Below are positions 2,192 to 51,536 of a DNA stretch of 64,000 bases, piece after piece. The stretch is from Acidimicrobiales bacterium (GTDB lineage Bacteria; Actinomycetota; Actinomycetes; Mycobacteriales; QHCE01), in NCBI GenBank assembly GCA_003243955.1, contig QHCE01000009.1:5225-69224 (forward strand). Reading direction: 5' to 3'. A program made the translations under genes and the position numbers. Position 1 is the stretch's first letter. Every line of letters begins with the position of its first letter. The notes beneath the pieces are model-generated. The model was not told the DNA's origin, made no database searches, and saw nothing but the letters and a program-made list of their open reading frames with translations.

Positions 2192-2254
2192 GTTTTAAGA
2201 CTCTAGTGCTACAGGCCGGCCGCCGCTGGCACAGGTGGAACAAGCGCCGATAGC

Positions 2255-2335
2255 ACCAACCAAGGCCGCAGGAGCCGCCGTGTTCGAAAGATTCGGAAAG
2301 GCGGCTCCAGAACAGCAAACGCCGGCAGGGACCCA
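2255..2335 (+). repeat. Family-2 structured repeat, copy A (degenerate, left terminal arm missing)
   Basis: The core CCAAGGCCGCAGGAGCCGCC...GGCGGCTCC...AACGCCGGCAGGGACC is shared with 5333-5444, 46911-47006 and 51372-51476. It has an internal 9-bp stem GGAGCCGCC (2271-2279) / GGCGGCTCC (2300-2308). Confidence 0.5.
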
Positions 2336-2342
2336 TAGGGGC

Positions 2343-2552
2343 TTAGGTGAGCGCGGGTTCTTCCAGTGAGGTTGTTAGCCGACTGAAATCGTCGTTGTAT
2401 GCAGAGAGCGCCGCGGCAAGCCTGTCGTTGTCTGCTCGCAGCCGGGCAACTTCAAACCCTAAAGCCTGAACACTATCCTTGAGTCGCTGCAACTCATCGC
2501 GCAATGCTGGTTCTGTAACAGTGCCGATGTGGCCAAACAGCGCCTTTGCCAT
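2343..2552 (-). CDS. Hypothetical small coiled-coil protein (69 aa)
   Basis: ORF-track ORF with heptad-like Leu/Ala/Arg pattern (RDELQRLKDSVQALGFEVARLRADNDRLAAAL). I recognise no family. Confidence 0.4.
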   Translation of the reverse strand: MAKALFGHIGTVTEPALRDELQRLKDSVQALGFEVARLRADNDRLAAALSAYNDDFSRLTTSLEEPALT

Positions 2553-4587: not shown

Positions 4588-5310
4588 CTACTCAGCGCTC
4601 AGTAGCTGCCATGCCTGTTGCGCAGCGTGCTGTTCGGCCGCTTTCTTGCTGTTTCCACGGCCACTGCCTACCCTGCGACCGGCCACTAACAGGATCGCCT
4701 CAAAGCGCTTGGCATGGTCAGGTCCGGATTCACTGATCTCATACACCGGAACGCCTAGCCCCTGCGCGGCGGCGAGCTCCTGCAGCGACGTTTTCCAATC
4801 CAGTCCCACGCCGAGCTGTGCAGCCTGTTCAATCACGGGATCGAACAACTGATGCACGACTCGTGAGGCGGCCTCTAGCCCCAACTGGATGTAGATCGCA
4901 CCAAGCAGCGCCTCGCAGGTGTCGGCAAGAATACTGGCCTTTTCCCGGCCGCCGGTAGCCTCCTCGCCTTTGCCGAGTAGCACGTGCACGCCTAAACCGT
5001 GCTCGCCCAGCCGGCGCGCAACATCGGCCAATGCCCGCATATTCACTACCGAAGAGCGCAGCTTCGCAAGCTGTCCCTCAGGGAGTTCGGGGTAGTTGCG
5101 GTATAGCGTCGAGGTAACGACTAACCCCAGGACGGAGTCGCCTAGGAACTCCAACCGCTCATTGGTGGGCAGGCCGCCGTGCTCGTAGGCGTAGGAGCGG
5201 TGCGTGAGGGTGAGCCGCAGAAAGGGTTCGTCCAACGTCACGCCAAGCACAGCGTTCAGTTCCCGAGCAGCCGCGCGGACATGTGCGTCCACAGAGCTAG
5301 CCGTACTCAT
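4588..5310 (-). CDS. rnc: Ribonuclease III
   Basis: It carries the RNase III signature [13 protein letters not shown] plus a C-terminal dsRNA-binding region ([19 protein letters not shown]...[15 protein letters not shown]). Confidence 0.92.
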
Positions 5311-5332
5311 GACGTTATGTAAAGACAGAAGT

Positions 5333-5444
5333 GTGCGTCAATCGGTCTCTGCCAAGGCCGCAGGAGCCGCCGCCTACGAAAATGGAGCGCAGCGGAATGG
5401 GTAGGCAAGGTGACGAGAACGCCGGCAGGGGCCGATTGACGCAC
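5333..5444 (+). repeat. Family-2 structured repeat, copy B (complete)
   Basis: It has 21-nt terminal arms GTGCGTCAATCGGTCTCTGCC / GGCAGGGGCCGATTGACGCAC, which pair at 19 Watson-Crick plus 2 G.U positions on the + strand. The core is CAAGGCCGCAGGAGCCGCCGCCTAC...GTAGGCAAGGTGACGAGAACGCCGGCAGG. It fills the rpmF-rnc spacer. Confidence 0.7.
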
Positions 5445-5447
5445 GCT

Positions 5448-5630
5448 CTACGCAACTTCGAGGATCTGGCGGCCCTTATACATGCCACAGGTCTCACACA
5501 TCACATGCGAAAGTTTTGGCGCCCCACACTGCGGGCATGCACTGTAGTTGACCGGTTTGATCTTGCTGATCCAGTTCGCACGCCTCGAGCGAGTGTTCGC
5601 GCGAGACATTCGGCGTTTGGGGACGGCCAC
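5448..5630 (-). CDS. rpmF: 50S ribosomal protein L32
   Basis: MAVPKRRMSRANTRSRRANW... with CPQCG...CETCG zinc-ribbon cysteines. Confidence 0.92.
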   Translation of the reverse strand: MAVPKRRMSRANTRSRRANWISKIKPVNYSACPQCGAPKLSHVMCETCGMYKGRQILEVA

Positions 5631-13961: not shown

Positions 13962-14678
13962 ATGACGACCCCAGGACTGAACCCGCCGCCCGGCTCGCGT
14001 CCTCCGCATATGCCGCTACGCGAGCAGCGGGCCAACGTCACCACCGTTCTATTAGTGGATGACCACGATCTGATTCGTCAAGGACTGCGGCACGCTTTCG
14101 AACGAGACCCGGAGTTTCGCGTGGTCGCCGAAGCAAGCACGGTCAAGGACGCGGTAGCCCGTGCCAATGAACTGCGGCCGGACGTCGTGATCATGGATCT
14201 ACGTTTACCGGACGGAAGTGGACTCGATGCCACTCGGGCGCTGCGCTCCTCTCGCTCCGATATCGGCATTGTAGTGCTTACTATGTACGCGGGTGACGAT
14301 CAGCTTTTTGGGGCCCTCGAGGCCGGTGCCAGCGCTTTCGTTCCAAAGAACGCCCCGGCCGACGAGGTTGTGGCGGCCGCGAAGCATGCCAAATCCTCCC
14401 CTAACGCGTTCACGGCGTCCGATCTTGCTGAGGCGATGAAGCGGCGGCTCACGCCCAGCGGACCCCACTTGTCGCCACGTGAGGGTCAAGTGCTCAAACT
14501 CCTGGCTGATGGGATGAGCGTCGCGGGCATCGCCAAGCAGCTCTATGTGTCTGAATCTACCGCTAAAACCCACATCTCCAAGCTGTACGAGAAGCTTGGC
14601 GCCGGAAATCGGGCGCAAGCGCTGATGACCGCGCTACGAGTCGGCCTACTGGAATCACCGCACCAAGGCGACGTGTAA
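13962..14678 (+). CDS. Response regulator, NarL/LuxR family
   Basis: It has a REC domain (VLLVDDHDLIRQGL..VVIMDLRLPDGSG) plus a LuxR HTH (LSPREGQVLKLLADGMSVAGIAKQLYVSESTAKTHISKLYEKLG), with RBS GAGGAG upstream. Confidence 0.88.
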   Translation: MTTPGLNPPPGSRPPHMPLREQRANVTTVLLVDDHDLIRQGLRHAFERDPEFRVVAEASTVKDAVARANELRPDVVIMDLRLPDGSGLDATRALRSSRSDIGIVVLTMYAGDDQLFGALEAGASAFVPKNAPADEVVAAAKHAKSSPNAFTASDLAEAMKRRLTPSGPHLSPREGQVLKLLADGMSVAGIAKQLYVSESTAKTHISKLYEKLGAGNRAQALMTALRVGLLESPHQGDV

Positions 14679-14707
14679 GTACGGCGTTTTCCCTGAAAAC
14701 GTCGTAC
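14679..14707 (+). terminator. Stem-loop immediately after the response-regulator stop
   Basis: GTACGGCGTTTTC-cct-GAAAACGTCGTAC forms a 13-bp stem with one mismatch. There is no clear U-tract. Confidence 0.45.
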
Positions 14708-14715
14708 TTAAGCTC

Positions 14716-14752
14716 GTGATTAGGACATTTTCCGGGAAAATGTCCTAATCAC
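14716..14752. terminator. Perfect 18-bp-arm palindrome between convergent genes (possible bidirectional terminator or protein site)
   Basis: GTGATTAGGACATTTTCC-g-GGAAAATGTCCTAATCAC. Confidence 0.4.
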
Positions 14753-24407: not shown

Positions 24408-24562
24408 ACGCCTAGTCTGTCACTTCACGCACCAGATCCCGCCAAGCCCTCTAGGGTAAGGAAAAGCGGAATTGAGCACAGCAGCACTGAATCGTGACCA
24501 CCTGTACGAGTTTGAACGATATACCGCGATTTGAGATACCAGAGGCAGACGGAGCGCCATTA

Positions 24563-24723
24563 AGAGGTCGCGCGGGTTGGTCGTTCGTTGCGAGGTGGTG
24601 CCTGGTCGAGGATGGCAAGGCGGAGGAGGAGTTCATGCTGGATGCATGGGCGACGACGACAACACAGCCAGGCGAAGTGCCAGGGGACACCGCAGTAGAA
24701 CAGCACCAATCCGCGCGACCTCT
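24563..24723 (+). repeat. Family-1 structured repeat, copy 1
   Basis: The closing helix AGAGGTCGCGCGGGTTGGT / ACCAATCCGCGCGACCTCT is 19 bp with one G.U. The core is GGCAAGGCGGAGGAGGAG, hairpin CATGC-tggat-GCATG, GGCGACGACGAC, ...GTGCCAGGGGACACCGCAGTAGAACAGC. It is near-identical to 41057-41232. Confidence 0.78.
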
Positions 24724-24745
24724 CAGCAAGAAAGGCGGCTTGCGC

Positions 24746-34314: not shown

Positions 34315-34382
34315 TGTCGTCGAACTCGACAAAACTGCTGTTTTTTAGCCTGAAATGCACGTTTCTGTCGAGTTCGACGACA
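34315..34382. promoter_or_regulatory. Perfect 17-bp inverted repeat upstream of vapB (operator or hairpin candidate)
   Basis: TGTCGTCGAACTCGACA (34315-34331) and TGTCGAGTTCGACGACA (34366-34382) are separated by 34 nt, 74-141 nt upstream of the vapB start. Confidence 0.5.
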
Positions 34383-34432: not shown

Positions 34433-34786
34433 CTACAGCGCGAGCGCCTGTGCTCGACGCTTGACCTCACGTGCTTTAGGACCGTACAGCGCATCCACTG
34501 GCTTGCCGCCCAGCGATTCATCCGGGGTAAACAGCCAGCGCAGCATCTCTTCTCGCGAGAACCCGTCATCCCGCAGCACGATAAACAACCCCGCAAGGTG
34601 AGCGGCAACGTGTTCATCCGTGGGTACCAGCTCGCCAGGGATATACACCACTCCATCTCGGCGTAGCGCAAAAAGCTCACCCTCGGCAATCATGCGATGC
34701 ACCCGCGTGATGCGCACATTGAGCCGCTGCGCCACGGCAGGAACGGTAAGCCATTCGTTAGAGGAGATCAGCTGTTCGTCAGGCAT
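34433..34786 (-). CDS. Rv2175c-like winged-HTH DNA-binding protein
   Basis: It contains the HTH-like segment WLTVPAVAQRLNVRITRVHRMIAEGELFALRRDGVVYIP and is divergent from the Ser/Thr kinase. An alternative GTG start is at 34825. Confidence 0.6.
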   Translation of the reverse strand: MPDEQLISSNEWLTVPAVAQRLNVRITRVHRMIAEGELFALRRDGVVYIPGELVPTDEHVAAHLAGLFIVLRDDGFSREEMLRWLFTPDESLGGKPVDALYGPKAREVKRRAQALAL

Positions 34787-34835
34787 GATGAGAAACCGTA
34801 CACTGGCCTTCGTGAACGTAACCACGAGCGACCCG

Positions 34836-36917
34836 ATGCAGGGGATGTTGCTCGAAAAGCGCTACCGAATTCGCGGCAAAATAGCCCAGGGCGGCATGGC
34901 CTCGGTGTATGAGGCCTTCGACGAACGACTTGAGCGCCTGGTCGCCGTAAAGATCATGCGTCCGGAGTACGCAACCGACGCAGTGTTCGCCAGCAGGTTC
35001 ATGCGTGAAGCCCGATCGACCGCGGCGCTCAATCACCCACACATCGTCGCAGTGTTCGATCAGGGTCACCACGACAACACCATGTTCCTGGTTATGGAGA
35101 AAGTAGATGGCACCACGTTGCGCGGGGTGCTGAAGCAGCGAGTGCGGCTGAACCTCGCCGAGGCGATCGGCGTAATAGAGCCTGTACTTGCGGCGCTAGC
35201 CCAAGCACACGAGCGGGGCATCGCGCACCGCGACGTGAAACCAGAAAATGTTCTGATCTCCTCGACTGGAATCGTGAAAGTCGCGGACTTCGGCCTTGCC
35301 CGCGCGGTAGAGAGCACTCATCAACTCACCAGCCGCAACACGCTGCTAGGAACCGTCGCCTACTTGGCTCCCGAGCAGATCACCAACGCTGAATCTGATG
35401 CCCGAAGCGACGTCTATGCCGTCGGAATTATGCTATATGAAATGCTCACCGGGGTTAAGCCGCATCAGGGAAGCTCGGCGATGCAGGTCGCTTACCAACA
35501 TGTGAACTCCGATGTGCCGCCACCATCAGACGTTGTGGCACAGCTTCCACCACAGTTCGACGAGCTTGTTGCCGCTGCCACTCGGCGCGACCGCACTCAG
35601 CGGCTGGCTTCCGCCGGGGTTTTCCTCACCGCGCTACGTCAAACTCGGCTTGCTCTAGGCATCACTCCATTGCTTGTTCGGGCCGCTGATGAAGTGAACG
35701 GCGCGACTGAAGCTACGCCACCAGACCCACGATCGCGGGAAAGTGCCTCCGGACTGCCTCCTGCCGCCTCAGGTCAGCAGGAGTCCGCAGAGCCGCAGGA
35801 GGAGCAATCTACTGCTCCACGAAACGATCCCGGCCAGAGCCGGAAAGCACCCAGTACGGGCACCTCAGTGATGCCGCCGCTGGGCCAGCAGCAACTAGGC
35901 GGCTCACTCACAGGAATGCATCGCGGAACCGCCGCCCCAGAGATTTATCAGCCGCCCGAGATGCCATCCGAGCCTCCGCCGCTGGCATCCTCGGCAGAGG
36001 GCGCGCGGCAGGAAAAAGATAAAAAACGCAGACTCCTCATGACCGCGTTGGCCGCGGCAGTGGTGCTGGTACTGCTAGCTGGGGGGTTGCTGTGGTGGTT
36101 AGGCGGGCGCAACGACGTTACCGTTCCCCAGTTCATCGGGTTGGATAAAACCGCGGCGGAAAGCGTTGCTAAAAAAGCGGACATCAAGGTTAGCTACGGC
36201 ACATCCAAATTTTCTGATTCGGTGAGTGAAAACGTCGTATTAGAGCAGAAGCCCGGTGCAAAACAACGCGTGGGTTCTGGCGACACCATCACGCTGGTGC
36301 TCTCGGGTGGGCCAAGGGTCCGCAGCGTACCTCAGGTGCGCGGCAAGACTCGCGACGAAGCTACAAAACTGCTGGAAGCCGAGCATTTCACGCCCGTTGT
36401 CAGCGAAGAAGAGAGCCAAGACATACCCAAAGACAGTGCAATCCACACAGATCCTGGCGAAGGTAGGAAACTTAACGTCGACTCGCAGATCCGGTTAGTA
36501 ATCAGCAAGGGGCGCGGATCTACCCAAGTTCCTGATGTGGTGGGTCTAAGTAGGGCTGACGCCGTAGCTTTGCTCGCCGAGCACGGACTTAAAGCTACGT
36601 TCACTGAAGAAACAACCGACAATGACCCGAATAGCAATGCCAGAATCGACAGTGTGCTCCGGCAACAGACGGCACCTAACTCCACAGTAGAAAAGGGCAG
36701 CGAAGTTGTGCTGGTGATCTCTGGTGGCCCCGCTCAGGTTCAAGTACCCAACGTCCGCGGCTTGGATTGCGCACAGGCACGTGAGCTTCTACGCGGCGCG
36801 GGATTGAAAGCCAACTGTCAAGGTGCAAGTAGGGGCAAAGTCTTTTTCCAGTCACCCAACGCTGGTAGTACAGCAGAGCGAAAAAGCTCCGTGGCACTGT
36901 TCACGTTTCCCATTTAA
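34836..36917 (+). CDS. Ser/Thr protein kinase with four C-terminal PASTA repeats (PknL/PknB-like)
   Basis: It has Hanks motifs GGMASVYEA, VAVKIM, HRDVKPENVL, DFGLA and APE, a TM segment (LLMTALAAAVVLVLLAGGLLWWL), then four PASTA-like units. I chose ATG 34836. Confidence 0.88.
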   Translation: MQGMLLEKRYRIRGKIAQGGMASVYEAFDERLERLVAVKIMRPEYATDAVFASRFMREARSTAALNHPHIVAVFDQGHHDNTMFLVMEKVDGTTLRGVLKQRVRLNLAEAIGVIEPVLAALAQAHERGIAHRDVKPENVLISSTGIVKVADFGLARAVESTHQLTSRNTLLGTVAYLAPEQITNAESDARSDVYAVGIMLYEMLTGVKPHQGSSAMQVAYQHVNSDVPPPSDVVAQLPPQFDELVAAATRRDRTQRLASAGVFLTALRQTRLALGITPLLVRAADEVNGATEATPPDPRSRESASGLPPAASGQQESAEPQEEQSTAPRNDPGQSRKAPSTGTSVMPPLGQQQLGGSLTGMHRGTAAPEIYQPPEMPSEPPPLASSAEGARQEKDKKRRLLMTALAAAVVLVLLAGGLLWWLGGRNDVTVPQFIGLDKTAAESVAKKADIKVSYGTSKFSDSVSENVVLEQKPGAKQRVGSGDTITLVLSGGPRVRSVPQVRGKTRDEATKLLEAEHFTPVVSEEESQDIPKDSAIHTDPGEGRKLNVDSQIRLVISKGRGSTQVPDVVGLSRADAVALLAEHGLKATFTEETTDNDPNSNARIDSVLRQQTAPNSTVEKGSEVVLVISGGPAQVQVPNVRGLDCAQARELLRGAGLKANCQGASRGKVFFQSPNAGSTAERKSSVALFTFPI

Positions 36918-37090
36918 GAGCGCTCGGTAATTGATGCTGTTCTACTGCGGTGTCCCCTGGCACTTGTGTCTCGGCTGTAGCCGAGGATATTGTCGTCGTC
37001 GCCCATACCTTCTCGGTATGAACTCCTCCTCCGCCTTGCCATACTCGACCAGGCACCACCTCGCTACGAACGATCAAATGCCGAACACTC
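36918..37090 (-). repeat. Family-1 structured repeat, copy 2 (inverted orientation, diverged)
   Basis: It is the reverse complement of the family-1 core, with rewritten but still pairing stems. It begins on the nucleotide after the kinase stop codon. Confidence 0.72.
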
Positions 37091-37154
37091 TAACCGGCCG
37101 CAATCGTGAGCTAAGCCACTTCCCGTTGCATAATTCTGATCTTAGGGTCACTTT

Positions 37155-40673: not shown

Positions 40674-40776
40674 GAATCCGTTACTCCTTCATAGTTAGGT
40701 CTAGACCGATATGGATCGATACCGCACAGCTTGCCACTAACGTCGATTACGAGTTCCGCCGGGCGTTAAAGGGTAT

Positions 40777-40946
40777 CTAGTGTTGTGTAATCGATATCGT
40801 CGTGTGTGTGCTGGGGCTCAGGCGGCGCCTCGCGGCGTTGTCGAAATTTCGGAGGTAGGACACCGCTACCTGAAAATTCTCCGCCTTGCGATCCATCCAC
40901 CTGAACAACCAGCACCCAGAACGGAACATCGATTACACAACACTAG
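40777..40946. other. 170-nt long imperfect hairpin with perfect 19-bp termini (single copy). It could be a 6S-like ncRNA or a MITE-like palindrome.
   Basis: The termini are CTAGTGTTGTGTAATCGAT (40777-40795) / ATCGATTACACAACACTAG (40928-40946). The inner helices are GTGCTGG/CCAGCAC and TCAGG/CCTGA, and the apex is GGTAG-gacaccg-CTACC centred at 40862. Confidence 0.5.
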
Positions 40947-41056
40947 TGCCGTGCCGGGCGGCGGGAAAATTCCGCAGAGCTCGAAAAAAACATGCCCCCA
41001 AGTTTCGCCAAGCTCACGTCAGCTGAGTAACAAATCTGCAAGGATCACTACCACTA

Positions 41057-41232
41057 AGAGGTCGCGCGGGTTGGTCGTTCGTAGCGAGGGCGAAGTTGGC
41101 TAGCGCAGTCCTGGTCGAGGATGGCAAGGCGGAGGAGGAGTTCATGCTGGATGCATGGGCGACGACGACAACACAGCCAGGCGAAGTGCCAGGGGACACC
41201 GCAGTAGAACAGCACCAATCCGCGCGACCTCT
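41057..41232 (+). repeat. Family-1 structured repeat, copy 3
   Basis: It has the same termini and right half as copy 1. The left arm carries a different or inserted segment (GCGAGGGCGAAGTTGGCTAGCGCAGTCCTGG). Confidence 0.78.
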
Positions 41233-41314
41233 CAGCTAAGAGTGTCCAACCTAATTCATGCGGCGCGCATCTGTCGGATAGTGATTGCCGCCAACGGGTG
41301 CGAAAGGATCGGGT

Positions 41315-46910: not shown

Positions 46911-47006
46911 GGCTCTGCCAAGGCCGCAGGAGCCGCCGGCCTACGAAGAAAGTGGAGCAAGGCGGCTCAAAACATGTAGAACGACGGCAGGGACCGATTG
47001 GTGCGC
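46911..47006 (+). repeat. Family-2 structured repeat, copy C
   Basis: GGCTCTGCCAAGGCCGCAGGAGCCGCCGGCCTACGAAG...GGCGGCTC...GTAGAACGACGGCAGGGACCGATTGGTGCGC. It lies between convergent genes and ends 3 nt before the hemW stop. Confidence 0.6.
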
Positions 47007-47008
47007 GC

Positions 47009-48313
47009 TCAAGGGTTCAGCTGAGCGAGGACGGTGTCAGCAAGTAGCCGACCGCGTAGCGTGAGGCAGGCGCGACCAGCGGTATATGCGTCGGGGCGGA
47101 GCAAACCGTCGGCCACGGCGAGCACTGCGCCGTCCTGGCCCGCGGCCTCCAGCTGGTGCAGCGGATATCCCTCTACAAGCCGCAACCGCAGCATCAGATC
47201 CTCATCGCGGCGCTGCCGCAGAGTGAGCAGCTCGCGAGCCTGTGCCGGTGAGCTACCTCCCGCCAACCGGGAAGCATAAGCGGCTGGGTGCTTTACATTC
47301 CACCAGCGCACACCACCCACGTGGCTATGCGCACCAGGACCAAGCCCCCACCAATTGCCGCCCCGCCAATACAGCTGATTGTGTCGACATCGATCCTCGC
47401 TCGTGCGGGCCCAGTTCGAGATTTCATACCAGCCCATCCCCGCCTCGCCGAGTATCTGTTCGGCGAGCAGATACCGGTCTGCCAGCGTGTCATGATCTGG
47501 GGCGGTCAACTCGCCACTACGCACTTGGCGCGCGAGCCGGGTTCCCGGCTCCACAGTAAGCGCATAGGCCGATATGTGATCGGGCTTAGCCGACACGGCT
47601 GTGCGCAAGGACTCCAGCCAATCGGTATCAGTCTCGGTGGGAGCACCGTAAATAAGATCTACATTCACGTGGGTAAATCCCGCTTGACGCGCCTGCGCGG
47701 CCGCGGCTACGGCGCGCCCAGGGGTATGGCGCCGGTCCAGTGTTGCCAGAACGTGCGGCATCGCGGACTGCATACCCAGCGAAATTCGAGTAAAACCAGC
47801 ATCTACCAGAGCAGCCAAACTGCTGAAGTCCACCGACTCCGGATTGGCTTCCGTGGACACCTCAGCGCCCGACGCGAGGCCAAAAACACTGTCCAGGCGA
47901 CGCAGAATCGTCGCCAAGTGCGATGCGGGTAACAATGTGGGGGTACCCCCACCGAAGAAGACCGTATCTATCTGCGGCAGCCGCGCCTCCGGCTTGGTGC
48001 CCAGCACCCGGCTGGCAAGCTCGATTTCGGCAAGCACGGCGCTGAGGTAGGAGTCGATGTCGGCCACGGTGCCTGTGGGGGCGGCGTGAGCTGCTAACTC
48101 GCTGAGCGTATAGGTGTTGAAGTCACAATATCCGCAGCGTGTAGCACAGTAGGGCACATGTACATAGACGCCGAAATGATCGGCGGGCTGACCCTGTTCC
48201 TCCCTTTGCACACCCTCCTCTCGCGCGTGCTCCCAGCGCAGTCCTGCTCGCGTGGACGTAGGCAAGCTGCCATCGCTGGGGGCTGGTTCACCTTCAGGTA
48301 GCTTTGCGGACAT
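47009..48313 (-). CDS. hemW: Radical SAM heme chaperone HemW / oxygen-independent coproporphyrinogen oxidase-like
   Basis: It has the motif GVYVHVPYCATRCGYCDFNTY (CxxxCxxC). The start is uncertain: ATG 48313 is chosen, GTG 48211 behind GAGAGGAGG is an alternative, and the track ORF runs to 48391. Confidence 0.8.
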   Translation of the reverse strand: MSAKLPEGEPAPSDGSLPTSTRAGLRWEHAREEGVQREEQGQPADHFGVYVHVPYCATRCGYCDFNTYTLSELAAHAAPTGTVADIDSYLSAVLAEIELASRVLGTKPEARLPQIDTVFFGGGTPTLLPASHLATILRRLDSVFGLASGAEVSTEANPESVDFSSLAALVDAGFTRISLGMQSAMPHVLATLDRRHTPGRAVAAAAQARQAGFTHVNVDLIYGAPTETDTDWLESLRTAVSAKPDHISAYALTVEPGTRLARQVRSGELTAPDHDTLADRYLLAEQILGEAGMGWYEISNWARTSEDRCRHNQLYWRGGNWWGLGPGAHSHVGGVRWWNVKHPAAYASRLAGGSSPAQARELLTLRQRRDEDLMLRLRLVEGYPLHQLEAAGQDGAVLAVADGLLRPDAYTAGRACLTLRGRLLADTVLAQLNP

Positions 48314-48346
48314 GGTTCTAGTCTGCTGGACAGTAATCTCTGAAGC

Positions 48347-49123
48347 ATGAACGCACTCGTGCACAGCAGAATTCGCGGGCCGATAGCTCACGTGACGCTA
48401 GATTCGCCTAGTAACCGCAATGCGCTTTCGGTAGAGCTGATCGAACAGCTATGTAGCACGCTGCGAAAACTGGGAGCTCAGCCAGCCGTGCGAGCGGTGG
48501 TGCTCAACCACACCGGGAGCACGTTCTGCTCCGGAGTCAATCTACGCGCCGCATCGAGCTGCATCGAGGGCGTCGCGGAGCTGCTTGCCACAGTCTGGGA
48601 ACATCCCGTTCCCGTGATCGCCGCCGTTTCCGGTGCGGTGCGCGGCGGAGGGCTTGGTCTACTCTGCGCTACCGACATCGTGGTGGCCAGTACCCAGAGC
48701 AGCTTCAGCTTCAGCGAAGTGCGGGTGGGGGTGGTACCTGGCACTATCTGGCCGCTGGTAGCAGGTCGCATCGCGGCATCGGCGCGCTACCTGCTTCTCA
48801 CCGGGGAGACATTTAATGCCACCCAAGCGCAGCACATCGGTTTGGTCACCGCCACGGTCAACCCGGAACAGCTCGATGACACCGTTGCCACCTACGCGTC
48901 AGCGGTACTTCAGGGGGCTCCCGGCGCGGTCATGGCCACCAAGCGGCTGTTGCGCACGGTGGATACCCGGTTACCCGCCGAGGGATCGCTACGCGAGTTA
49001 CTAAGACCACTAGCAGCGGCTTCGGGTGAGAAGTTTAATTTCACGGAGGCGCGCGAAGGCAGGGCAGCATTTGCCGATAAACGCAGTCCCAGCTGGGTAC
49101 CACATCCGCAGCAAGACACCTAA
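48347..49123 (+). CDS. Enoyl-CoA hydratase/isomerase (crotonase) family protein
   Basis: It has the crotonase-fold pattern VVLNHTGSTFCSGVNL...VIAAVSGAVRGGGLGLLCATDIVVA...F.F.EVRVGVVPG. Confidence 0.85.
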   Translation: MNALVHSRIRGPIAHVTLDSPSNRNALSVELIEQLCSTLRKLGAQPAVRAVVLNHTGSTFCSGVNLRAASSCIEGVAELLATVWEHPVPVIAAVSGAVRGGGLGLLCATDIVVASTQSSFSFSEVRVGVVPGTIWPLVAGRIAASARYLLLTGETFNATQAQHIGLVTATVNPEQLDDTVATYASAVLQGAPGAVMATKRLLRTVDTRLPAEGSLRELLRPLAAASGEKFNFTEAREGRAAFADKRSPSWVPHPQQDT

Positions 49124-50993: not shown

Positions 50994-51368
50994 ATGACAG
51001 CAAAACGGGAACAACCGCAGAAGGCGCAGATAACTTTTGGGAAGTTCGAGAACGTTGACCTGAGAGTGGCGCGTGTGACGTCAGCACCGCTAGCTGAGGG
51101 TACTCGGTTTCCTTGTCGAGTGATCACACTTGAGCTTGGCCATCTAGGGCAGCGTACCTCGGTCGGGCAGTACGCACTGCATACCGAAGCTGAACTTGTT
51201 GGCAAAAACGTTGTTGCCTGCATCAATCTGGGCCAACGAGAGATGGGTTCATACACATCTGAGGCTTTGGTATTGGGCGCCCCGCATCCCCAGAGCCCCG
51301 AGGACCAGTCCCAGGCCACCCCACTGTTCGTCTCGCCAGATGCTACTGCGGGCGACCAAGTCTTTTAA
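50994..51368 (+). CDS. tRNA-binding domain protein (CsaA-like)
   Basis: ITFGKFENVDLRVARVTSAPLAEGTRFPCRVITLELGHLGQRTSVGQ. I chose ATG 50994. Confidence 0.72.
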   Translation: MTAKREQPQKAQITFGKFENVDLRVARVTSAPLAEGTRFPCRVITLELGHLGQRTSVGQYALHTEAELVGKNVVACINLGQREMGSYTSEALVLGAPHPQSPEDQSQATPLFVSPDATAGDQVF

Positions 51369-51371
51369 CTC

Positions 51372-51476
51372 AGAGGGTGTGCCAAATAGACCCCTGCCGG
51401 CGTTCTCGTCGCCTTGTCTACCTTCGTAGGCGGCGGCTCCTGCGGCCTTGGCAGATGCCCTATTGGCGCACCCTCT
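51372..51476 (-). repeat. Family-2 structured repeat, copy D (inverted orientation)
   Basis: Its terminal arms are AGAGGGTGTGCCAAATAGACCCCTGCC / GGCAGATGCCCTATTGGCGCACCCTCT. The core is the reverse complement of copy B. It lies 60 nt downstream of the antitoxin-like gene, on that gene's strand. Confidence 0.7.
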
Positions 51477-51536
51477 GACCATCCCCTACGAGCACCCCTA
51501 GCGGGTCAAGGTATTGCCTGCAAGATTCTGGCGGGC

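Follow-up and report, generated by a model that had tools for sequence, protein, structure and literature searches.

A 64,000-nucleotide stretch of an uncultured actinomycete metagenome-assembled genome (MAG; assembly GCA_003243955.1, contig QHCE01000009.1, positions 5,225 to 69,224; hereafter the window) contains four copies, A to D, of an intergenic hairpin element. These copies belong to a family of repeats, not described before, that occurs in genomes of uncultured actinomycetes and combines a constant core with stems of free sequence. A new finding is that members of the family abut stop codons and keep a fixed orientation there. We propose that the element is a non-autonomous, structure-dependent mobile hairpin, of the kind represented by MITEs (miniature transposable elements with inverted repeats) or REPINs and tolerated at the 3' ends of genes, a reading in which our confidence and our doubt are about evenly balanced.

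Anatomy and covariation of the hairpin

Read on the strand taken as forward in a preliminary description of this DNA, the element is built from an outer stem of 22-30 bp that encloses CTGCC-AAGGCCGCAGGAGCCGCC-[variable hairpin P2]-CAAGGCGACGAGAAC-NNN-GGCAG, with a total length of ~100-170 bases, a nearly invariant core and core lengths that are not multiples of three. The outer arm often starts with (T)[A/T]AGAG, followed by 4-10 hypervariable bases, the semi-conserved mid-arm CCAATAGG (with the variants CCAGTAGG, TCAGTTGG, CCAAAAAG and CACATGAGG) and 3-4 bases, chiefly pyrimidines, that lead to the CTGCC anchor. On the far side of the core, three free bases separate CAAGGCGACGAGAAC from GGCAGGG(G/A) and the complementary arm. 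The P2 stem covaries between members (GCCTAC/GTAGGC, GTGTAC/GTACAC, GCGTAC/GTACGC and GCGGCC/GGCCGC) and may contain the conserved insert GAAAATGGAGCGCAGCGGAATGG. It is flanked by a short helix, CGCC/GGCG (P-mid), for which a diverged copy provides support, both sides having changed there to give CGGG/CCCG (L094; loci beyond the window are cited by L numbers). Two alternative 3' modules occur, namely AAGGCGGCTC...AGAACAGCGAAACGCC, which pairs with GGAGCCGCC and marks the A/C type, and an additional hairpin, GCCCGGGTGCGGGTGTCCCGCA.

In the window, the 20-mer CCAAGGCCGCAGGAGCCGCC has four exact matches (2260+, 5352+, 46918+ and 51432-) versus 0.01 expected in shuffles, and all four are followed by an exact or near match to the 3' motif GAACGCCGGCAGGG. 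A window scan with a covariance model built from relatives matched copies A, B, C and D only, so that the four copies originally reported were recovered by both routes. The long stems described as closing the complete copies are also present, spanning 24 bp in copy B and 29 positions in copy D, and the two proposed sub-variants are real: copies A and C carry GGAGCCGCC/GGCGGCTC(C/A), and copies B and D carry the GCCTAC/GTAGGC hairpin. Copies B and D fold far better than shuffled sequences (z -5.1 to -6.2). The folding energy of copy B is -62.1 kcal/mol for the + strand versus -53.7 kcal/mol for the - strand, and its arms contain three G·T pairs and no other non-Watson-Crick pairs. The statement that the arm mismatches of both complete copies are all T opposite G is correct for copy B and incorrect for copy D, whose arms also have one A·C mismatch and bulges and whose complementary strand folds slightly better (-57.2 versus -54.7 kcal/mol). 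Copy D has a fresh P2 mismatch, GTAGA, where a related assembly reads GTAGG; in its counterpart at L082:1647-1751, aligned to window positions 51372-51476, a single base differs and restores the P2 pair. The other two copies are decayed. Copy C has retained its 3' arm (46986-47008) and lost the 5' arm. Copy A has an A-type core, in which GGAGCCGCC (2271-2279) is paired with GGCGGCTCC, two degenerate arms and an anchor without its CTG.

Scanning the 20-mer across one genome per species yielded 74 loci, of which 62 are family members and the other 12 are chance matches inside genes of unrelated bacteria. The member loci come from four related MAGs (LS6_sbin.2 with ~29 copies, JTS-RE384 with ~23, SMAG_U5548 with ~8 and MFD00822.bin.2.24 with 5), and the covariance model gave 74 matches in 524 kb. 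Together, the related MAGs and soil metagenomes hold about 70 copies beyond the four of the window. An independent metagenome search by the 3' motif added six more members, from soil metagenomes, and in all except the most diverged of them the 5' 20-mer is intact or differs by a single change. Conservation of the core is therefore no artefact of searching with the 20-mer. The National Center for Biotechnology Information labels of the element-bearing MAGs read 'Mycobacteriales' or 'Acidimicrobiales', that of the window's MAG being 'Acidimicrobiales bacterium'. The RNase III encoded in the window is 75-78% identical to its nearest relatives, one of which belongs to a 'Mycobacteriales'-labelled MAG, 70% identical to that of the MFD00822 MAG and ~70% identical to those of Actinocatenispora and Micromonosporaceae. 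This similarity points to hosts that probably form one actinomycete lineage near Micromonosporaceae and Actinocatenispora. Transfer between bacterial classes was dropped as an explanation, the 'Acidimicrobiales' labels being in conflict with the RNase III similarity.

Covariation was quantified on a model-based alignment of 74 family members. Of the 26 outer-stem pairs, 25 change on both sides, as do 4 of the 6 P2 pairs, and standard pairs occupied 89.6% of cells versus 68% in shuffles and 33-42% with slid partners. Arms are 86% complementary within their own copy versus 50% for arms taken from different copies, and the mean identity of arms between copies is only ~50%. The element had been thought to be a structured single-stranded form with a defined polarity. 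Covariation supports the structure; the polarity finds support in the orientation relative to the docked gene (see below) and none in a general G·U excess. In the four columns beside the CTGCC/GGCAG anchor, where a 5'-side pyrimidine lies opposite the conserved GGG(G/A), G·T outnumbers A·C by 92 to 9, versus 69 to 50 in the remaining arms and 13 to 8 in the inner stems. The strand bias first described is thus confined to the columns next to the core.

Covariation of this kind is no proof of RNA function, because template switching during replication can turn quasipalindromes into perfect inverted repeats (PMC7202029) and because REPIN hairpins, which are mobile DNA, commonly show compensatory changes (PMC3116915). 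Efforts to discover noncoding RNA by covariation face a strong confounder in this family, as its massive 'compensatory' change may be largely mutational.

Position and orientation at stop codons

Genes were called with a simple codon-usage caller and the calls were partly checked by Pfam. The setting of the elements is tandem in 39 cases and convergent in 23, with 2 doubtful divergent gene pairs, and all four window copies are intergenic, as the preliminary description had it, and each abuts a stop codon. The distance between core anchor and stop codon is 22-26 nt, so that the stop falls at the outer end of the forward-3' arm or overlaps it. Between tandem genes, the element directly adjoins the stop of the upstream gene and leaves 20-250 nt to the next start codon. 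Several observations attest to the fixed orientation. First, 39 docked genes lie opposite to the forward strand and 13 on that strand, and 11 of these 13 are the second gene of a convergent pair. Second, elements with a single abutting gene are split 28 opposite versus 2 same (p about 1e-6). Third, all seven Pfam-verified docking genes that were checked (rpmF, hemW-like, tRNA_bind, rplW, carD, DivIVA-like and ccsA-like) are antisense and flush, and window copy D is inverted together with its docked gene. Since the core is antisense to the docked gene, the mRNA carries the reverse complement of the forward strand. Control of orientation by the replication strand was rejected, the forward-strand GC skew being positive at 26 loci and negative at 36.

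The docked genes share no function; one of them, recA in LS6_sbin.2 (L004:541-2664), contains a LAGLIDADG intein. An enrichment of TAG at docked stops was not significant relative to the stop usage of the lineage itself (p = 0.19). In this lineage of ~60% G+C, called genes end in TAG in 39%, TGA in 35% and TAA in 26% of cases, an unusually high TAG share that may in part reflect crude gene calls or TAG supplied by element termini.

No promoter consensus, terminator consensus or U-tract was found at the elements, and their tails contain 2.8-3.5 T in 12 nt in either orientation. Elements also lie inside operons, essential ones among them, in the arrangements tuf-[element]-rpsJ, rplW-[element]-rplB and rpmF-[element]-rnc, and because of these locations they cannot be efficient terminators in the orientation in which they are found. 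A canonical intrinsic terminator was rejected accordingly, with no U-tract, no terminator-like site and copies residing inside the S10 operon and between rpmF and rnc.

Docking and orientation can be read in two ways. In the first, copies in the other orientation are purged by selection wherever they are co-transcribed; this would account as well for convergent sites, at which both orientations relative to either gene are seen. In the second, the reverse-complement RNA hairpin is functional at the 3' end of the docked gene, by protection or RNase III processing. Docking is strict and orientation to the gene is fixed, which would also be in keeping with a host-maintained cis-acting RNA element of gene 3' ends (a stabiliser, an RNase III site that uncouples cistrons or a terminator without a U-tract) whose dispersal is secondary, an alternative that we consider possible, if on the unlikely side. 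Stems of 22-30 bp match the length requirement of RNase III and copy B is directly upstream of rnc; moreover, orthologous copies are retained in two or three species with a core ~90% identical and compensated arms in flanking intergenic DNA that is unalignable. Such a host function is harder to reconcile with the fact that most syntenic comparisons are of presence versus absence, that decayed or truncated copies persist (A, C and the L004 remnant described below), and that the docked genes have no common function and the elements no U-tract. The S10-operon position rules out efficient termination, and compensatory change can be purely mutational (PMC7202029). This alternative partly overlaps with the mobile hairpin that we prefer, as a mobile element can be co-opted.

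A role of the core in trans was also weighed. If the elements were a family of small RNA genes, in which the variable stem is a processing stalk, like those around rRNAs, from which RNase III releases the conserved core, one would understand why the core hardly varies and pairing is all that the flanking stem needs. The internal loops, purine-rich and conserved, speak for folding of the forward strand, as do the columns compatible with G·U, and P-mid covaries (in L094, as noted above), all of which suits such genes. We nonetheless regard them as very improbable: in tandem contexts all local transcription runs antisense to the forward strand, no promoter-like site was found, the variable arms cannot carry a promoter, and copies A and C are decayed.

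Gain, loss and proposed mode of spread

At seven orthologous sites, a whole element is present in one MAG versus a short palindrome-free spacer in the other. These empty-site spacers measure 7-47 nt, for example 9 nt between convergent stop codons (L048) or 7 nt (L019), and because they lack a palindrome, the arms must belong to the element and not to a pre-existing target hairpin. Insertion of a core into the loop of a pre-existing terminator or palindrome was rejected on the basis of these empty sites and of the identical arms that occur at unrelated loci, both within and between genomes (L040/L073, L038/L049/L067 and L002/L027/L046/L057).

The insertion of copy B is lineage-specific; it sits on the stop codon of rpmF, upstream of rnc. 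Four relatives with an RNase III 75-78% identical to that of the window have no element between rpmF and rnc. In the three in which rpmF was called, the intergenic spacers are 15 nt, 44 nt and overlapping, versus 137 nt in the window; in the fourth (L095), ~90 nt of unrelated sequence extend from the rpmF stop to the rnc start. The rpmF stop is at the same position throughout, as TGA in the relatives and as TAG in the window, where it falls within the typical element terminus GCTCTA.

Two species share a filled site in at least three cases (L019/L064, L004/L066 and L007/L074), with arms that differ by compensated substitutions. In one shared-site pair the core subtype differs, which indicates replacement by conversion. 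Chimeric, tandem and remnant copies are signs of recombination and deletion among copies. L026:2812-2926 is a chimera of a 5' arm from one subfamily and a 3' arm from another, L066:7005-7209 and L052:7075-7270 hold tandem or nested copies, and L004:405-451 is a solitary arm remnant where L066 holds a full copy. The site orthologous to copy C in JTS-RE384 (L038:1411-1512), between a DUF4870 gene and the hemW-like gene, had wrongly been taken as empty; the covariance model finds a diverged copy there. It lies in the orientation opposite to copy C, owing either to an independent insertion or to an inversion between the arms.

If the element is a mobile hairpin, it would propagate via a folded single strand whose conserved core and anchor helix, not its termini, are what is recognised, and such recognition would explain a constant core within a stem that needs only to pair. 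Stem complementarity would be kept by the hairpin requirement, by template-switch correction (PMC7202029) and by conversion between copies, the last of which is supported by the direct evidence of L026 and the L004/L066 pair; none of the three calls for an RNA function. Copies would persist only where they are harmless, that is directly behind a stop codon and, if co-transcribed, only in the tolerated orientation. In mRNA they would be expected to form a perfect double-stranded stem of at least 22 bp without a U-tract, and this 3' hairpin would be a natural RNase III substrate.

Several points weigh against a mobile hairpin. First, no mobilising gene was found in ~650 kb (loci and window; tblastn with approximate IS200/IS608 TnpA queries) and no recurrent protein family was found beside the elements: genes that have an element on either side are housekeeping genes, and no neighbour that recurs around the loci could be put forward as a candidate transposase. 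Second, no recent insertion was found among the filled/empty pairs, in which the empty-site genomes are too diverged for the junction to be read. Third, the core of some retained orthologous copies is ~90% conserved versus ~70-80% for the flanking genes, which is compatible with host-level selection as much as with conversion among copies. Fourth, a purely selfish model would need further assumptions to predict the strict docking and orientation. Finally, the pyrimidine opposite G beside the core speaks for folding of the strand absent from mRNA. Taken with the purine-rich conserved loops, the same local preference suggests that this strand is the one that is folded and recognised, which favours a DNA-level intermediate over an RNA role of the core.

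The family is small, non-coding and multi-copy, with presence/absence polymorphism, as is typical of MITEs, and whole units are present or absent at orthologous sites. A classical cut-and-paste MITE moved by a DDE transposase would have arms that act as terminal inverted repeats starting with GAG, a 3-bp TAA/TTA target duplication such as IS5/Harbinger-type elements make, and stop codons as its natural TA-rich targets in a GC-rich genome. Copies of the 'AGAG' subfamily do show flanks of the form TAA-GAG...CTC-TAA or TTA...TTA in ~10 of 22 cases, as scored by eye, with the inverted pattern in ~5, and these direct repeats occur in none of the other subfamilies. The termini T[A/T]AGAG...CTCT[A/T]A and the mid-arm CCAATAGG are shared with a second repeat family of the window that has a different core (Family 1, see below). 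We find this mechanism distinctly doubtful all the same. Only (T)[A/T]AGAG and the mid-arm are semi-conserved as terminal repeats and the arms are hypervariable beyond the terminal GAG, whereas transposase-binding repeats are normally conserved; many subfamilies have neither GAG ends nor a direct repeat. No long autonomous version was found among the 62 loci, each 5' half having its 3' partner within 55-115 nt except in the truncated L065 and the upstream tandem copies of L052 and L066. A symmetric target with symmetric repeats leaves the orientation bias unexplained, and the compared genomes offer no clean filled-versus-empty junction.

Related families and known hairpin repeats

The core of the family described here (Family 2) has relatives in the window. 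Family 1 elements are ~170-190 nt long with arms of the form TAAGAG...CCAATAGG-like...CTCTNA that vary with compensation, and the centre of their core, ATGGCAAGGCGGAGGAGGAGTT[CATGC..GCATG]GGCGACGACGACAACACAGCCAG, aligns with CTGCCAAGGCCGCAGGAGCCGCCG[CCTAC..GTAGG]CAAGGCGACGAGAACGCCGGCAG of Family 2. Two of the window copies are just upstream of genes in sense orientation, and further copies are found at L012:3020-3190, L049:3314-3481, L017:6439-6599, L040:7836-8000 and L038:3114-3289. With the third kind of hairpin in Table 1, the anchor helix covaries among three families (CTGCC/GGCAG, TGGC/GCCA and TCGC/GCGA). The third kind shares the central module in spite of its different arms, and the common denominator of the three is therefore this module within its anchor helix, not the termini. 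We tentatively raise an idea, itself unlikely, that the module AAGGCNG...hairpin...CGACNNAAC, present in at least three families, might be the site of a structure-specific enzyme that places hairpins on stops in a fixed orientation, in which case the hairpins would be a new class of mobile element targeting gene 3' ends; alternatively, they would be a signal for processing RNA 3' ends that has been domesticated across the lineage. Should docking prove to follow from an enzyme or a selective rule, the choice of safe sites by non-autonomous elements and their co-option as RNA processing signals in actinomycetes become testable.

Table 1. Coordinates of hairpin elements, their parts and adjacent genes (numbering of the window)
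Feature	Position	Strand	Remarks
Copy A	about 2244-2342	+	decayed; covariance model 15.2 bits
Stop codon abutting copy A	2343-2345		TTA
rnc (RNase III)	4588-5310	-	downstream of copy B; start 19 nt past element
Copy B	5330-5447	+	intact, focal copy; 24-bp stem formed by 5330-5353/5424-5447
Copy B anchor	5349-5353/5424-5428	+	CTGCC paired with GGCAG
Copy B 20-mer	5352-5371	+	invariant
Copy B P-mid	5368-5371/5409-5412	+	CGCC paired with GGTG
Copy B P2	5372-5377/5401-5406	+	GCCTAC paired with GTAGGC; carries 23-nt insert GAAAATGGAGCGCAGCGGAATGG
rpmF (ribosomal protein L32)	5448-5630	-	PF01783; docked to copy B; stop TAG 5450-5448 abuts 3' arm directly
Family 1 element	24556-24727	+	arms TAAGAG...CTCTCA; longer core, centre homologous to Family 2 core
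Third Family 1 element	36917-37093	-	starts at stop codon of pknB-like kinase gene (34785-36917)
Third kind of hairpin	40777-40946	-	170 nt; different arms (CTAGTGTTGTGTAATCGATATCG...), same central module GCAAGGCGGAG-hairpin-CGACAACGCC
Second Family 1 element	41050-41236	+	
Copy C	46911-47011	+	decayed; covariance model 27.5 bits; A/C-type core GGAGCCGCC/GGCGGCTCA
Radical-SAM (hemW-like) gene	47009-48391	-	docked to copy C; stop (TCA 47009-47011) flush
tRNA-binding-domain (tRNA_bind) gene	50994-51368	+	docked to copy D; stop TAA 51366-51368, 1 nt off arm
Copy D	51370-51478	-	intact, short type; 53-nt core between anchors
Copy D arms	51478-51450 (5' arm), 51398-51370 (3' arm)	-	29-position stem

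The region 40700-41250 is a repeat nest in which the element at 40777, the Family 1 copy at 41050 and, directly after the latter, an arm-like TAAGAGTGT lie together. Unrelated strong inverted repeats are found at 14676-14710, 14716-14752, 34315-34382 and 2641-2740; the pair at ~14.7 kb consists of adjacent AT-rich near-perfect palindromes, and the hairpin at 34.3 kb has 20 bp per arm.

Rfam gave 0 matches at the gathering threshold across the whole window, and a permissive search (E up to 10) gave chance-level hits only, on two copies, with 13-17 bits versus thresholds of 37-85. A known RNA family was ruled out by these null results together with the absence of tRNA and tmRNA genes. The family was not matched in phage records, plasmid records or viral contigs, and a phage or plasmid origin was set aside on that basis. 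The core sequences are absent from the text of searchable papers, in agreement with the earlier failure to match the element to any named family. Homology to MIRU was likewise rejected, as alignment to the motifs quoted in PMC6286618 was no better than for shuffles (z <=1.6).

Hairpin repeats such as REP, REPIN, Correia and ERIC shape mRNA stability, operon processing and genome rearrangement, and how most of them move is unclear. Like REPINs, the present elements are extragenic, multi-copy hairpins (~70-110 nt in this comparison) with compensatory changes, orthologous persistence and a presumed folded single-stranded form (PMC3116915), and the whole unit behaves as a hairpin, with 89.6% paired cells and 25 of 26 stem pairs compensated. 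REPINs are defined by conserved REP ends (16-mers) around a less conserved spacer (PMC3116915), whereas here it is the middle that hardly varies and the ends that drift, to ~50% identity, so that the REPIN definition does not apply. The family thus turns the usual pattern round, its core being constant and its stems free, and adds a strict rule of stop-codon position and orientation that holds even in ribosomal-protein operons, whereas REPINs are described as randomly distributed in extragenic space.

An actual REPIN-type system, in which the hairpin is mobilised as single-stranded DNA by a single-copy RAYT (an HUH tyrosine transposase whose gene the repeats typically flank) and persists by vertical inheritance, would accommodate extragenic ~100 nt hairpins with frequent compensatory changes (PMC3116915), the persistence of orthologous copies across species and the strand-specific G·T feature beside the core. 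We judge it quite improbable in view of the reversed conservation pattern (PMC3116915) and the absence of a GTAG/CTAC-type terminal tetranucleotide; in addition, no sequence resembling a Y1 transposase was found in ~650 kb, which is a weak test.

Correia elements (CREE/NEMIS) of Neisseria similarly are inverted repeats around a conserved core, ~100-150 bp long, intergenic and co-transcribed; their RNA hairpin binds RNase III and is cleaved or protected, and their presence differs between strains (PMC2649163). Membership in this family was rejected, as there is no sequence similarity, the arms differ between copies here, no promoter motif was found, the elements keep one orientation relative to the upstream gene, and their hosts are actinomycete MAGs. 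The inverted repeats of Correia elements are a fixed ~26 bp, with a TA duplication and motifs for IHF and promoters. ERIC/IRU sequences are imperfect palindromes of ~127 bp in transcribed intergenic regions with an orientation-dependent effect on mRNA; they differ from the present family in sequence, in host and in their conserved arms, and we know of no description of stop-codon docking for them.

The attC sites of integron cassettes are recognised by structure, are variable but complementary, have one active folded strand and lie just after the cassette stop in a fixed orientation. They provide a working analogy only, for structure-based recognition, post-stop position and fixed orientation. 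In contrast to the elements described here, attC sites have conserved outer R boxes (RYYYAAC/GTTRRRY), a variable centre, an organisation in arrays and an adjacent intI; membership was rejected, given termini of T[A/T]AGAG/CTCT[A/T]A and copies scattered among housekeeping genes in both genomic orientations. Among known systems, the element works like REPINs and Correia elements, yet it departs from both in the sequence and organisation by which they are defined.

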